Positions 5,687-32,328 of a DNA stretch of 39,203 bases are shown here, in pieces (position 1 is the first letter of the stretch; the number at the start of each line of letters is the position of its first letter). The notes beneath the pieces were generated by a model, which had not been told where the DNA came from, did not search any database, and worked only from the letters and a program-made list of their open reading frames with translations. The translations under genes were made by a program, and so were the position numbers. Source of the stretch: an uncultured Planctomycetia bacterium (GTDB lineage Bacteria > Omnitrophota > Gorgyraeia > JABMQH01); assembly GCA_964421145.1 (NCBI GenBank), contig CAYQVM010000001.1:6108-45310 (forward strand). The letters run 5' to 3'.

Positions 5687-7327
5687 ATGCTGACAACGGC
5701 ATCTCCAAAAATCTTTGTCGGAAGAAATGAAATACTGGAAACCCTGAATAAAAGGGTGGAGTCGTTAAAATCCGGTTACAGGCAGAACCTCGCCCTTACG
5801 GGCCAGAAACTATGCGGCAAGACCAGCATACTTCAGAATTTTCTATCTACGCTCAACAGCGACTCTATCATACCTGTATACATAGAAGTAATCGCCGAAC
5901 CGCTTGAAACCTTCTCAAAAAAATTTATCGGAACAATGCTCTTTAATTTTCTGAAGGGCTCCGAGGAATACATAAAAGAAGACCTGAATTTCCTTATCTT
6001 TAAGGCGGGCGGGACGATTCCAAAAACCGCCTCCGCCATAAAAGAGGTCCTGGCCCTTCTGGATAAGGGGGACTTGCAGGAAGCCTACTCAAACCTTTTC
6101 GATCTCACCTCTGTATTAAAACTTGAAACCGGCAAATCTTGCATAATAATACTCGATGAGTTTCACAACCTGTCATCCCTAAATCTAAAAAATCCGTTTG
6201 CGATATTCGGCAAAAGGATAATGGTGCAAAAAGACACCATGTATGTGGTAACCAGCTCGCAGGTTTCTACAATAAAAAAGATACTCAAGGAAAGGCTTGA
6301 CCTTTTATTTGGCAACTTTGAGATTATCGAGATAAAGGATTTTGATTACGGCGTGGCAAAGGCCTTTCTTGAAAAAAGGCTTGAAGGCATACGCGTACAG
6401 GAAGAGCTGAAGGATTTTCTGATTTCTTTCACGGATTCCAGGCCTTATTATCTAGACGCCATCGCGGCCGAATTAAACAGCCTTGCCGCCCAGCTCCAGT
6501 TTAAATGGCTTGCCACCGGCCACATCTCGCAGGCGCTTGAAAACCTATTCTTCGATTCCAAAGGTTCTATAAATCAGTACTTCCAAAATCTTATTGCGGC
6601 GTTCTCGCAGGGTTCCTACGCCAATGAGTACCTAAGCATCCTGACCGCTATATCAGAAGGGAAGAAGAGACTAAGCCAAATTAGAGGCGTATTCAGCGGC
6701 AAAAAAAATGAGCTTGGCCCAAGGATGGAAAGACTGATAGAAGAAAATTTTATCGCCAAGAACGGGATGATGCACTACTTTAACGACAAGGTCTTCGAAT
6801 TCTGGCTTAAACATGTATACAACAAAAAAAGATATTCGCTGCTGAGTAACTTTCAGGACAGGGCAAATATGTTCCACAGGGAGATAGAGGACTTGATTGC
6901 CCTCTTTTTATCGGAGAACAAAAAAGATATCGCCACCCGCTTAAAAGAGCTGATGGCCTCCTTTAATAACGAGGCCTTAAAGATAGGCGAAAAAAGCCTG
7001 AAGTTGCCGAAATTCGAGAATTTTAAGACGGAGGGGCAGATGTGCGAAAGCGGTGTCCTGTCCATCAGGGCCGAATACGGCGGGAAAAAATTCTGGGTTT
7101 TCAATTTCAGCCCCCAGTCGGTTGACGAACCGGGAATGTCAAGGGCCATAGAAAGAATAACTGCTATGAAACTCGCACCCCAAAGAAACGTTTTTATAGC
7201 CTTCGCGGGGATTGACGCAAACGCGATGCTGATAGCAAAAGAAAACAGGGTGTGGGTATTAGGGAAGGAGGATCTGAATTTATTAATGCCTCTTTTTAAT
7301 AAATTCAAGATACTAAAATATCCATGA
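5687..7327 (+). CDS. AAA+ ATPase of the archaeal-type (COG1672-like) family with a DUF234-like C-terminal module
   Basis: FVGRNEIL, Walker A GQKLCGKTS and Walker B IIILDEFH. 546 aa. The C-terminal ~90 aa form a separate module. Confidence 0.6.
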   Translation: MLTTASPKIFVGRNEILETLNKRVESLKSGYRQNLALTGQKLCGKTSILQNFLSTLNSDSIIPVYIEVIAEPLETFSKKFIGTMLFNFLKGSEEYIKEDLNFLIFKAGGTIPKTASAIKEVLALLDKGDLQEAYSNLFDLTSVLKLETGKSCIIILDEFHNLSSLNLKNPFAIFGKRIMVQKDTMYVVTSSQVSTIKKILKERLDLLFGNFEIIEIKDFDYGVAKAFLEKRLEGIRVQEELKDFLISFTDSRPYYLDAIAAELNSLAAQLQFKWLATGHISQALENLFFDSKGSINQYFQNLIAAFSQGSYANEYLSILTAISEGKKRLSQIRGVFSGKKNELGPRMERLIEENFIAKNGMMHYFNDKVFEFWLKHVYNKKRYSLLSNFQDRANMFHREIEDLIALFLSENKKDIATRLKELMASFNNEALKIGEKSLKLPKFENFKTEGQMCESGVLSIRAEYGGKKFWVFNFSPQSVDEPGMSRAIERITAMKLAPQRNVFIAFAGIDANAMLIAKENRVWVLGKEDLNLLMPLFNKFKILKYP

Positions 7328-26537: not shown

Positions 26538-26565
26538 TTGACTTTACAAAAAAATATGCTATACT
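26538..26565 (+). promoter_or_regulatory. Putative sigma70-type promoter driving the riboswitch transcript
   Basis: TTGACT (26538-26543), 16 nt, TATACT (26560-26565). A G-run begins about 7 nt downstream. Confidence 0.5.
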
Positions 26566-26571
26566 AGTATT

Positions 26572-26767
26572 GGGGCCGATAAAGGCAAACCCTGAGAAAT
26601 CAGGGGACAGGCTAAATGCCTGACCGGAAGGTCGCAAAGCCTCAGGCCTAAGCTGTTATGCATGCCATGAAGGAAGGTGAGGCAAAAGAGCAAATAAAAA
26701 GCATAACAGTATGGTAGCTGGGCTGCCGAAACGCAGAGCAACTTAAGCAATGCGCTTTATTGGCTCC
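26572..26767 (+). promoter_or_regulatory. c-di-GMP-I (GEMM-I)-like riboswitch aptamer with extra peripheral hairpins
   Basis: Contains GGCAAACC-CUGA-GAAA-UCAG-GGGAC, GCAAAGCCUCAGGCCUAAG and UAUGGUAGCUGGGCUGCC. These match the GEMM-I consensus as I recall it, including a GAAA tetraloop and the 11-nt receptor. A 13-bp closing helix joins 26572-26584 to 26755-26767. Confidence 0.8.
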
Positions 26768-26777
26768 TTTTAGTAAG

Positions 26778-26808
26778 CGATATGCAAATGCGGCATATCG
26801 TTTTTTTT
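26778..26808 (+). terminator. Intrinsic terminator (expression platform of the riboswitch)
   Basis: CGATATGC / GCATATCG forms an 8-bp stem with a 7-nt loop, followed by T8. Confidence 0.75.
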
Positions 26809-26873
26809 ATTTGCATTTTTCTCTGCACTTAGTATATAATATAATAACTAGATATATAATATTTAGTCCTATA

Positions 26874-27626
26874 ATGAGCGAATCTTTAGATGAATTAAAA
26901 CGGGTAGAAGTAAATCAGTTCCAGGAAGAATTGGCAAAAACATATTTTTCAACAGGTTCTTCAAAAGAAGAGTATTCCTCACAGCCTAAACCTGCCGCCA
27001 AAGACAAAAACAATAGGAATAGAAACGGCCTTTTATTGGCTATTTTTCTAACCTTATTAATTATCACATCCATTGCCTTCCTGGCATTTAACCGCTTGAC
27101 TATTAATGTAAAGATAACTCCTGTGCCCAATTCCGGGATAGACAATAGCGCATATACCGGGATAGTCCCTTTTAATAAAAACGGAGAGCTTAATAATGAC
27201 CTTGTTAAACATGTGGTATTCTATGAAAATGCCGGAAATGAAAGCGCCTGGGGCAAGGATATTACCGTACTTTCAAATGAGGACATATCAAAAAAGGCTG
27301 TGTTGGGAATAGATTTTGTTAAACCAATAAGCCTAAAGGAGAAAATACTTTGTTTTCTTGCCAGGGGCAATAGCGGGGGCGAAGAATTCAGGATTGCGTT
27401 GCGCGATAATGAGAATAACATTTGTTATTCAAAAATCAGCGCCATAGAAAATGGGTGGCAAAAATTTATTGTAGACGGACTGACGGCCCAAGATTTTATA
27501 GATGCGGAAAAAATTAACCATATTGATTTTGAAGTAAATCCCGCAGAAAAAATTTTTTTAAACTCTTCAACTATTTACCTTAAGGATATGTATTTGGCTA
27601 AACAGGAAGGAGGCCCCGAGAAATGA
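26874..27626 (+). CDS. Single-pass membrane protein with an extracytoplasmic beta-rich (carbohydrate-binding-module-like?) domain
   Basis: Cytoplasmic N-terminus, TM helix LLLAIFLTLLIITSIAFLAF, and a ~170-aa C-terminal domain. ATG 26874 chosen because the track start (TTG 26760) lies inside the riboswitch closing helix. Confidence 0.55.
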   Translation: MSESLDELKRVEVNQFQEELAKTYFSTGSSKEEYSSQPKPAAKDKNNRNRNGLLLAIFLTLLIITSIAFLAFNRLTINVKITPVPNSGIDNSAYTGIVPFNKNGELNNDLVKHVVFYENAGNESAWGKDITVLSNEDISKKAVLGIDFVKPISLKEKILCFLARGNSGGEEFRIALRDNENNICYSKISAIENGWQKFIVDGLTAQDFIDAEKINHIDFEVNPAEKIFLNSSTIYLKDMYLAKQEGGPEK

Positions 27627-28699
27627 AAGTAGTAACAATTGCAAACCAAAAAGGTGGTTGTGGTAAAACTACCACGGCAATCAATCTGGCTAGTTTAAAT
27701 CATAGCGTGCTTCTTGTAGATCTTGACCCTCAGGGACACGCAAGCTACGGCCTAGGCGTGGATCCTATGAAAATCGAAAAATCCATATACAATTCTCTGA
27801 CCTCAACACAAGACAGAAGGCTCAATATAGAGAGCATCATAATAAATATAGCGGGCGGATTAGACCTAGCACCTTCTAACATACTCTTAAGCACCATAGA
27901 GCAGGAGCTCAGAGACGTTGAGGGGGCTGTCTCAAGGCTGTATGAGGCATTTAACTCAATGAAAAGATCTTATGATTTTATAATAGTTGACTGCCCCCCG
28001 AGCCTGGGGTTCCTGACATTCAATGCCTTGAGGGCTGCCCATCTAGTTCTTATACCGGTAGAAACCAGCAGATATTCCTTGGTTGGCATAAATAAGTTGA
28101 TGAATATGGTTGAGTTGATAGCCCTTAAGATACAACATGCGCCTAAGATAAAGGCTGTTGTAACAATATACGACAAAAGAACCAATTTTTCACAAAGAAT
28201 ATTAAATGAAACAAGATCTTATTTCAAAGATAACCTCCTAAGGACATTAATCAGGATTAATGTTGCTCTAAAAGAGGCGGCTAACTCCGGCATCCCAATA
28301 GACAGGTACAATAAACATTCCAATGGCGCCCAGGATTACCGCGAGCTGGCTGATGAGGTGCTAAAGGAAACAAAGAAAATTCATCTTGAAAATTTTTATA
28401 AAGAAACTCTGGCAATGATTAGCCACGCAAAAAGAATTTCCGGCTATACGCTTACGTTTGTTTCACCGGCAGCAAAAGAAGTCTACGTGGTCGGAGACTT
28501 CAATGATTGGGCCGTGGACCAAACCCATAAATTAACATTTAAAAACAATGGCAGGTGGGAAAAGAAACTGGATCTAAAACCCGGAAGATACAGATATAAA
28601 TTTGTGGTTGACGGCCAATGGGTGACAGACCCCCAGAATACCCAGACAGAGTCAAACCCGTTCGGCGGGGTTGATTCTGTTCTTACAATTAGTGCTTGA
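27623..28699 (+). CDS. ParA/MinD-family ATPase fused to a C-terminal CBM48 (AMPK-beta glycogen-binding-like) module
   Basis: Deviant Walker A NQKGGCGKTT, LLVDLDPQG and IIVDCPPSLG. The C-terminal ~85 aa, FVSPAAKEVYVVGDFNDW..GRWEKKLDLKPGRYRYKFVVDGQWVTDP, match the CBM48/AMPK1_CBM pattern. ATGA overlap with the upstream gene. Confidence 0.8.
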   Translation: MKVVTIANQKGGCGKTTTAINLASLNHSVLLVDLDPQGHASYGLGVDPMKIEKSIYNSLTSTQDRRLNIESIIINIAGGLDLAPSNILLSTIEQELRDVEGAVSRLYEAFNSMKRSYDFIIVDCPPSLGFLTFNALRAAHLVLIPVETSRYSLVGINKLMNMVELIALKIQHAPKIKAVVTIYDKRTNFSQRILNETRSYFKDNLLRTLIRINVALKEAANSGIPIDRYNKHSNGAQDYRELADEVLKETKKIHLENFYKETLAMISHAKRISGYTLTFVSPAAKEVYVVGDFNDWAVDQTHKLTFKNNGRWEKKLDLKPGRYRYKFVVDGQWVTDPQNTQTESNPFGGVDSVLTISA

Positions 28700-29382
28700 A
28701 AAAATCCTTATTAGACATATATAACAAGCTCTATAAAAGATTTGGCCCTCAAGATTGGTGGCCGGGAGATACCGAATTTGAAATAATAGTCGGGGCGATT
28801 TTAACTCAGAATACCGCCTGGGCAAATGTAGAAAAGGCTATATATAATTTAAAGAAACACAAATTACTCTCCCCGGTAAAACTTTCCCGGACAAAACCCC
28901 CAAAAATCGCTGCTCTTATAAGGCCCAGCGGATACTACAATATTAAGACTCGCAGGCTTTTGAACTTTATTAATTATTTGAACATTGAGTACGGGGGTGA
29001 CTTAAAAAGGATGTTCAGGCAAAAAACTGATGCCTTAAGAAAAAGGCTTCTTGGCATAAAAGGGATAGGCCCCGAAACGGCGGACAGTATATTGCTTTAT
29101 GCCGGCGATAAGCCCGTATTTGTGGTGGATGCCTATACCAAACGCATTTTTTCCAGATACGGCCTCTTATCAGAAGGGGCTTCCTACGATGAAATTCAGC
29201 GTCTTTTTTTACATAACCTGCCAAAAAGCGTAAAATTATACAATGAATATCATGCATTAATAGTGCGGGCAGGGAAGGATTTGTGCAGAAAAAAGCCTAA
29301 ATGCAGCTTGTGCTCCTTACAAAAAGGCTGTAAATACGCTAATAAAGGTATAGAGAAGGCCGAGATTGCAATTGCCAATTAA
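28696..29382 (+). CDS. Endonuclease III-related HhH-GPD protein with an Fe-S cluster loop
   Basis: ILTQNTAW, LLGIKGIGPETADSILLY, VVDAYTKRI and the C-terminal CRKKPKCSLCSLQKGC. TTG start overlaps the upstream stop. Confidence 0.75.
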   Translation: MKKSLLDIYNKLYKRFGPQDWWPGDTEFEIIVGAILTQNTAWANVEKAIYNLKKHKLLSPVKLSRTKPPKIAALIRPSGYYNIKTRRLLNFINYLNIEYGGDLKRMFRQKTDALRKRLLGIKGIGPETADSILLYAGDKPVFVVDAYTKRIFSRYGLLSEGASYDEIQRLFLHNLPKSVKLYNEYHALIVRAGKDLCRKKPKCSLCSLQKGCKYANKGIEKAEIAIAN

Positions 29383-32246: not shown

Positions 32247-32328
32247 CCTCCCATTTTGTCCTAATTTTACTTAACCCACAAAATGATCCCGAGGCACCCT
32301 TGTTTTACATACCCCCGGTGCCGAGGGA
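32247..32328 (-). promoter_or_regulatory. Two-hairpin 5' leader motif, copy 3 (upstream of the RAM-domain gene)
   Basis: RNA sense: UCCCUCGGCACC..GGUGCCUCGGGA, CAUUUUGU..ACAAAAUG, GGGAGG. Both stems carry compensatory changes relative to copies 1 and 2. Confidence 0.6.

Follow-up and report, generated by a model that had tools for sequence, protein, structure and literature searches.

The window (39,203 nt; positions 6,108 to 45,310, forward strand, of contig CAYQVM010000001.1 in GenBank assembly GCA_964421145.1, an uncultured Planctomycetia bacterium placed by GTDB in Omnitrophota; Gorgyraeia; JABMQH01) contains at 26538-26808 an RNA element that belongs, by the Rfam threshold, to the class I aptamers for cyclic dimeric guanosine monophosphate (c-di-GMP), also called GEMM-I. 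Judged by its sequence, this RNA is a structural variant of the c-di-GMP-I family that departs from it in the uninterrupted GAC-GC strand of the three-helix junction, where two abutting hairpins are inserted. With fair confidence, we interpret the element as a leader (or small RNA) that is transcribed and contains a class I c-di-GMP aptamer, one whose structural subtype is common in Omnitrophota. Few RNA sensors have been studied as thoroughly as the class I c-di-GMP riboswitches, whose three-helix junction is regarded as invariant. The subtype splits the pocket-forming strand between two essential neighbours and keeps every pocket base, which shows the tolerance of the junction to remodelling.

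The cmscan analysis (Rfam 15) assigned positions 26574-26730 to RF01051 (c-di-GMP-I) with a score of 49.7 bits (gathering cut-off, 35 bits; E 6.4e-7). The match spans the full model (positions 1-87) and wins the competition within clan CL00126. This score, significant over the whole model, bears out the initial annotation, in which a GEMM-I c-di-GMP riboswitch had been recognised from the letters alone. The core elements named there (GGCAAAC, P2, GAC, GCAAAGCC, CCUAAG, UAUGG and UGCC) all occupy the positions given to them, both the GAAA tetraloop and the 11-nt receptor are present in sequence, and the 9-bp extension of P3 with its 39-nt loop and the 27-nt stretch at 26728-26754 are as described. 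Residues were mapped using the Vc2 numbering of PMC11705072, the Rfam consensus and our own mapping, which gives the following elements of the aptamer domain.

26584-26727, plus strand: c-di-GMP-I aptamer core, from the G20-equivalent G26584 to UGCC at 26724-26727
26584-26590, plus strand: core element GGCAAAC, by direct reading
26590-26605, plus strand: P2 (P1b in Rfam), a 6-bp hairpin, CCCUGA/UCAGGG, with a GAAA tetraloop
26606-26608, plus strand: conserved GAC linker; C26608 is the C44-equivalent, partner of G26717 (G83-equivalent)
26609-26621, plus strand: inserted hairpin 1, AGGC-UAAAU-GCCU; 4/4 pairs compensatory, 99.6% of cells paired
26622-26633, plus strand: inserted hairpin 2, GACC-GGAA-GGUC; 4/4 pairs compensatory, 98.3% of cells paired
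26634-26641, plus strand: core element GCAAAGCC, following the insert
26634-26638, plus strand: GCAAA; G26634 and C26635 are the G45 and C46 equivalents, A26636 is the A47-equivalent
26638-26724, plus strand: P3 (P2 in Rfam), with the receptor, the 9-bp extension and the 39-nt loop
26647-26652 and 26710-26714, plus strand: the two halves of the 11-nt tetraloop receptor, CCUAAG and UAUGG
26653-26661 with 26701-26709, plus strand: P3 extension of 9 bp, capped by the A/G-rich 39-nt loop at 26662-26700
26716-26717, plus strand: bulged AG; G26717 is the G83-equivalent
26724-26727, plus strand: UGCC, which holds the C92-equivalent

The pocket bases are kept in this RNA, namely the equivalents of G20 (G26584), A47 (A26636) and C92 (in UGCC, 26724-26727). 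G26584, the G before GCAAAC whose retention had already been pointed out, is the base that separates c-di-GMP-type from cyclic GMP-AMP (cGAMP)-type aptamers, and the A at position 20 that is the signature of the cGAMP type (GEMM-Ib) is not found here. The tetraloop receptor and the C44/G83 nucleotides are likewise present, in a comparison made at the level of sequence and not of three-dimensional contacts. The 2-bp helix, in which G26634 and C26635 pair with C26586 and G26585 (C22-G45 and G21-C46), agrees with the consensus structure line of Rfam and is invariant (GC/CG in 62/62 aligned sequences), and all six pairs of P2 covary across the same 62 sequences.

The departure from the published consensus concerns the GAC-GC strand, which is interrupted by 25 nt in two hairpins between C26608 and G26634. 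The insert (26609-26633) sits exactly between GAC and GCAAAG, i.e., between the C44 and G45 equivalents, and hairpin 2 abuts both hairpin 1 and G26634 with zero linker bases. The cmscan alignment instead puts 39 nt inside P2 and reads GUC at 26631-26633 as the conserved GAC. This placement was rejected: in the relatives, hairpin 2 ends in unrelated bases and GAC always stands after P2. Because the comparison with 58 relatives puts the insert after GAC and before GCAAAG, the Rfam placement is, on this comparison, an artefact of a chance GGUC. The proposal of two 4-bp hairpins in the junction strand that contacts the ligand was thereby upheld over the cmscan alignment. The insert, the extended P3 and the outer helix set apart by 27 nt had all been called atypical. 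They are atypical in comparison to canonical GEMM-I, but typical of the phylum, where the module recurs, P3 loops of 47-81 nt are common and a long P1 is repeatedly separated from the core by a linker of variable length.

The insertion site is a sensitive one, since the inter-helix pair C44-G83 is required for folding and binding of Vc2 (the G83C mutant abolishes binding) and Vc2 G45 is among the residues with imino signals only in the ligand-bound state (PMC11705072). When the motif was first described, the 2-bp and 6-bp stems were given as separated by a simple internal loop of 3 nt, with no mention of an added element (PMC1950547). Full-text literature searches returned no published description of a two-hairpin GEMM-I subtype. 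With two abutting hairpins, the AAA/GAC internal loop would become a local four-way junction, and the pocket would be surrounded by five helices instead of three. The module would most likely act as a structural brace or folding aid projecting away from the pocket. An alternation of AGGC or GGUC of the insert with P3 or GAC, acting as a switch, was considered and set aside, as the complementarity was seen by eye in this copy and is not general in the relatives.

The module recurs with different sequences. A BLAST search with the leader retrieved a locus (G053:C26) with the same stems, AGGC/GCCU and GACC/GGUC, and different loops. A pattern search of 401 genomes of the window's class revealed the same layout built from other stems: GUCCC/GGGAC with CCUG/CAGG, GGGCA/UGCCC with UUCUGA/UCAGAA, AUCCC/GGGAU with CCCGAA/UUCGGG, AUCC/GGAU with CCCGC/GCGGG, and AGGU/ACCU with CUGCUGA/UUAGCGG. 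An alignment of whole aptamers with MAFFT misaligned the variable hairpins, and model-guided alignments were used instead. A covariance model of the 5' domain (R1) was built from two collinear sequences and rebuilt as an 84-position model (R2) from 12 diverse members aligned with R1. In the 12-sequence alignment, 100% of cells were paired, each hairpin had 4/4 compensatory pairs, and the covariation score was 0.849 versus 0.223 for shuffled alignments (0/500 shuffles reached 0.849); structures slid by 1-3 columns scored at most 0.19. The extended alignment of 62 sequences (59 insert-bearing and 3 canonical) gave 99.5% paired cells, again 4/4 compensatory pairs in hairpins 1 and 2, and a score of 0.907 versus 0.195 shuffled. 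A point that counts against this evidence is that the alignments were fitted to the structure of the model and are biased towards it; even so, both hairpins can be recognised easily in the raw sequences and in independent RNAfold predictions of the inserts alone.

In nearly all members, GAC, hairpin 1, hairpin 2 and GCAAAG follow one another flush, with zero linker bases. Among the 59 insert-bearing members, the insert measures 25-76 nt (median 41), this copy and that of G053 being the shortest; 54 have GAC, 58 have G as the G20-equivalent, and P2 ends in a GNRA loop in all 59. The pattern points to selection on the structure of the module and not on its sequence. In one insert-bearing copy (L111, G117:C77:4480-4561, minus strand), the G20 position is occupied by A (GAAAAGAGCAAAC), the change that defines the cGAMP-type GEMM-Ib. 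A different expanded GEMM-I layout occurs at two other loci (L063 in G016:C27, near-identical at three further G016 sites, and L078 at G040:C1:3466-3533), where two hairpins are inserted within the 5' strand of P2; there, the hairpins precede the GNRA-capped tip of P2, and the linker is GGC instead of GAC.

The subtype was traced through the lineage of the host genome, a 1.03-Mb, 86%-complete metagenome-assembled genome (MAG); the sequence is found in public runs from groundwater metagenomes. RF01051 is present in 54 of 61 genomes of the window's class, in up to 17 copies each. The best approximately 150 matches listed for R2 in the 401 class genomes were all 76-135 nt long, and those loci therefore carry the insert. 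Among 301 genomes of the phylum, 65 had an R2 match at a strict threshold, 17 of them from other classes, and a few canonical matches of 51 nt slipped in. Insert-bearing loci scored 47-82 bits against R2 and canonical ones 32-42 bits with a 51-nt footprint; the 82 bits of this copy are circular, since it is a training member, and 47 members outside the training set scored 47-76 bits. The RF01051 cut-off recovered 14 of 20 subtype members, whose scores of 37-50 bits compare with 60-90 bits for canonical copies of the class. With approximately one third of the relatives tested falling below the Rfam cut-off, c-di-GMP regulons are under-counted in Omnitrophota and similar uncultured lineages.

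A pattern scan was extended to 185,579 species genomes. Among the matches listed, every MAG with the two-hairpin layout bore the label Omnitrophota or Omnitrophica, except for some named 'uncultured Planctomycetia' and a few with 'bacterium' or a similar label; four ambiguously or otherwise labelled MAGs are genomes G031, G197, G342 and G393 of the window's class (identical contig coordinates). Matches in Proteobacteria and Firmicutes were discarded as canonical aptamers with a chance GCAAAGC downstream, or as carrying a stretch that does not fold into two hairpins. Seven loci from MAGs of Steroidobacteraceae and other Gammaproteobacteria (L121, L128, L134, L143, L153, L157 and L160) are canonical, with a 3' end (GGGGUUGCCG) followed immediately by GCAAAGC, and this arrangement is nearly identical across several MAGs.

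Variation between close relatives was also informative. In a related groundwater strain (490-nt DNA contig, 37 differences), 0 of the 34 listed differences fall within 26570-26688, and the changes are frequent in the loops of P3 and of the terminator, in the flank of the promoter and ahead of the start codon. Because none of the listed differences falls in 26570-26688, the comparison supports purifying selection on the core and the insert. One locus (G127:C44) has the same first 35 nt as the window and different hairpins. Another (L052, G018:C20) has the same P2 sequence, a long P3 loop and no insert, and groundwater contigs that share the 5' part depart from the window exactly at 26606 or 26608, continuing as GCGCAAAGCC or GCAAAGCC. 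As these very close relatives with the same P2 lack the insert, the aptamer design works without it, as it would if the insert were a functionless passenger, the remnant of a mobile hairpin or palindromic repeat in a tolerant spot. We regard such an origin as highly improbable. The insert has no other copy in the genome (a pattern search allowing 2 mismatches returned only the insert itself and one chance match that is not a hairpin), and the idea of a dispersed repeat was rejected on this ground. Moreover, it is unchanged where the flanks and the P3 loop diverged between strains, and at more than 150 loci the module occupies the same site with the same number of hairpins and with linkers of zero length, while the sequences differ and covary. 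L052 and the groundwater metagenome contigs constitute natural insert-free sisters with the same P2 for direct comparison with the minimal 25-nt form, and the shortness of the insert makes this copy the most tractable construct for binding and structural work.

The most likely ligand of the expanded aptamer is c-di-GMP, an assignment that we hold as probable. It is based on the canonical pocket bases, the five GGDEF domains encoded in the genome, a STAS-PilZ protein 3.6 kb upstream and the genes found downstream of other subtype members, which encode CheY-type receivers/response regulators, type IV pilins, PilM/PilN, GH113 and large secreted proteins; a gene for a membrane PilZ protein lies downstream of the closest homologue, G127. 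These genes match the repertoire first reported for GEMM (PMC1950547). The stem lengths and loops of the module vary freely, which fits helices that point away from the pocket and is a further reason for proposing c-di-GMP. The module lies one phosphodiester from pocket-shaping residues (between the C44 and G45 equivalents), its phylum-wide conservation with zero-length linkers argues for a defined three-dimensional role, and canonical and insert-bearing copies share genomes, including this one (one canonical copy, C18:13630-13718, 63.5 bits, beside the expanded one), as would fit a division of labour. These observations could also mean that the module alters sensing, by recognising a different cyclic dinucleotide, a larger oligonucleotide or a linear product of the pGpG type, or by binding with markedly different affinity or kinetics, in which case the RNA would form a distinct riboswitch class. 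We find this quite unlikely, considering that the core, including the G20, A47 and C92 equivalents, is unchanged, that module stems and loops range freely over 25-76 nt, as expected for helices pointing into solvent, and that the gene associations are the classic c-di-GMP ones.

A related and speculative idea, which we doubt, is that the module is a functional addition defining a separate Omnitrophota riboswitch subclass, e.g., a coaxial arm that closes over or pre-organises the pocket, retunes affinity, on/off kinetics or selectivity, or docks a second partner. If this were true, cells could run canonical and expanded aptamers side by side for different c-di-GMP ranges. Irrespective of this, the subtype is a natural system in which to test whether second-messenger sensing is tuned by additional helices. 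The canonical copy of the host genome (G000:C18:13630-13718; L001, 1501-1589) lies 44 nt from a contig end, downstream of a prolyl-tRNA synthetase-like gene, and its target gene is cut off.

The regulatory context of the c-di-GMP aptamer comprises the following elements.

26538-26565, plus strand: predicted sigma-70-type promoter; TTGACT at 26538-26543, a 16-nt spacer and TGnTATACT, with TATACT at 26560-26565
26572-26583, plus strand: 5' strand of the outer helix P1; partner 26756-26767, duplex -17.2 kcal/mol
26728-26754, plus strand: 27-nt linker from the core to the P1 3' strand; small hairpin 26732-26735/26751-26754 when P1 is formed
26755-26771, plus strand: P1 3' strand (26755-26767), then UUUU (26768-26771)
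26747-26785, plus strand: candidate antiterminator; pairs 26747-26749/26783-26785, 26753-26757/26775-26779 and 26759-26763/26770-26774
26775-26808, plus strand: intrinsic terminator; stem 26775-26785/26793-26803, 7-nt loop, U8 at 26801-26808; -13.2 kcal/mol
26874-29382, plus strand: downstream operon of three genes; first start codon 66 nt past the terminator

The promoter was the best promoter-like site of the region in the promoter scan (10/12 positions matched, with TG two bases 5' of TATACT), and transcription is predicted to start at approximately 26572. The other signals of the leader had been placed correctly as well: direct reading of the sequence located TTGACT-16 nt-TATACT where it had been reported, the 196-nt RNA is closed by the helix of 13 pairs between 26572-26584 and 26755-26767 (2 of them G-U), and the 8-bp hairpin followed by U8 was recovered as a stem of 8 core pairs, extensible to 11. 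The minimum free energy of the leader is -91.6 kcal/mol (z = -4.69; 0/200 shuffles fold as well), and the corresponding structure holds every helix that the initial annotation had proposed. In the folded aptamer, P1 probably consists of 12 pairs, with G26584-C26755 as a possible thirteenth, because this innermost pair uses the G20-equivalent. In many relatives (L093, L108, L113, L114, L050 and L179), a run of 5-8 U stands directly 3' of the long P1 3' strand. As a U-run abuts this strand in many relatives and UUUU follows it here, P1 itself may serve as a first, weak terminator stem.

The arrangement of these elements suggests, as a model, that the riboswitch is an OFF switch. An aptamer organised by its ligand would close P1 quickly and hold the P1 3' strand (26755-26767); with P1 closed, the antiterminator could not form, and the terminator would then stop transcription before the operon. 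Without ligand, the local antiterminator hairpin would form first and let the polymerase through. The candidate antiterminator draws on the P1 3' strand as well as on the 5' arm of the terminator and so excludes both. Its energy in the nascent RNA (26740-26790) is -9.7 kcal/mol, no more than 0.3 kcal/mol above the minimum free energy. A thermodynamic search with constrained folds yielded no antiterminator that displaced the terminator, and only the fold of the nascent transcript gave this candidate.

Several observations weigh against such control of the operon. The 13-bp P1 (-17 kcal/mol) is far more stable than the antiterminator, and the terminator forms in every thermodynamic fold whatever the aptamer does; any switch would therefore have to work kinetically, and there may be none. 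The antiterminator pairs gain no support from the strain variants at 26747, 26748 and 26785, which show no covariation; C26785U keeps the terminator pair as G-U. No Shine-Dalgarno sequence is visible before gene 1 (sequence reading of 26809-26873), and the AT-rich stretch 3' of the terminator contains -10-like (TATAAT-like) boxes. The orthologous operon occurs in three sister genera without a riboswitch, with upstream gaps of only 56-80 nt; since these operons carry none, the promoter-aptamer-terminator cassette is a lineage-specific addition. The stretch 26809-26873 is also the most variable between strains, with 12 listed differences in 65 nt.

The constancy of the terminator, the self-contained cassette missing from the sister genera and the TATAAT-like boxes at 26809-26873 would also suit a stand-alone, constitutively terminated small RNA of approximately 235 nt (26572 to approximately 26808) with a c-di-GMP aptamer, e.g., a ligand-stabilised RNA or a sponge, next to an operon with its own promoter. 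Precedents for c-di-GMP-I RNAs that leave the downstream gene uncontrolled or work through RNA stability are Bc1 (PMC11218506) and the Vc2 upstream small RNA (bioRxiv 10.1101/617340). On balance, we consider a small RNA of this kind unlikely. The element lies where a 5' regulatory element usually does, 66 nt before the start codon and on the strand of the gene, the candidate antiterminator overlaps the P1 3' strand and the terminator arm, and the promoter scan gave no site meeting its criteria downstream of the terminator.

Sequences from metatranscriptome assemblies bear on both readings. A 173-nt contig from a freshwater assembly lies wholly on 26584-26756, and its listed differences are confined to the P3 apical loop (26664-26697), 26716 and 26747/26748. 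A 228-nt contig from a lake assembly matches only at 26593-26662, with two differences, and runs into sequence unlike the window flanks. Neither RNA contig has a listed difference from the window within 26584-26663. These data support transcription of the aptamer, with the reservation, which also weighs against the leader reading, that assembled RNA contigs can contain contaminating DNA. The contigs do not reach the terminator or the gene, as would be expected of a small RNA; however, contig ends do not map RNA ends.

For a leader that regulates its operon, the predicted targets are a 250-aa single-pass membrane protein without a Pfam match (gene 1), a ParA/BcsQ-like ATPase fused to CBM48 (gene 2) and an HhH-GPD (EndoIII-like) glycosylase (gene 3). 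A peptide-pattern search for relatives of the downstream protein in the genome contigs returned none, and a separate genome search did find orthologs.

In comparison to known systems, the RNA resembles the canonical c-di-GMP-I aptamer (RF01051, Vc2) in its GGCAAAC...GAC...GCAAAGCC...UGCC core scoring above the cut-off, its 6-bp P2 with GAAA tetraloop and 11-nt receptor in P3, its G20, A47, C92, C44 and G83 equivalents, and its 5' regulatory position followed by an intrinsic terminator. It differs in the pair of flush hairpins (25 nt in this copy and 25-76 nt among relatives) that split the C44-G45 strand, in the 9-bp P3 extension with the 39-nt loop and in the P1 3' strand lying 27 nt from the core. 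The cGAMP-sensing GEMM-Ib, c-di-GMP-I-GGC (RF03167) and c-di-GMP-I-UAU aptamers share the fold and clan CL00126 and are likewise GEMM-I variants defined by comparative analysis, but they represent changes of pocket bases (e.g., A at 20), whereas here a structural module is added to a canonical pocket. A parallel for the downstream part is Bc1 of the Bacillus cereus group (PMC11218506), in which two termination signals come one after the other behind a class I aptamer. The corresponding signals here would be P1 with U4 (26755-26771) and the hairpin with U8 (26775-26808), and in neither system is a coupling of the downstream terminator to the aptamer visible. In contrast, Bc1 has a canonical three-helix aptamer and two classical hairpin terminators 28 bp apart, and its behaviour has been measured, whereas the present RNA is known from its sequence.

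Some additional observations concern other copies and another element of the window. A two-hairpin element at 32247-32328 of the window has GUCCC...GGGAU-like termini on one strand, reminiscent of GUCCC/GGGAC, the stem that hairpin 1 most often has in the insert-bearing riboswitches of other genomes; the insert at 26609-26633 has no similarity to these termini. At two loci (L067 and L069; G358:C14 and G291:C4), a second partial aptamer of the GGCAAAC type (GAUAAAGGCAAACCCCGUUAGAGAUAAUGGGGGGC...) stands approximately 60 nt upstream of the insert-bearing one, an arrangement that suggests tandem or nested aptamers. In G420:C5, two insert-bearing copies lie 154 nt apart.

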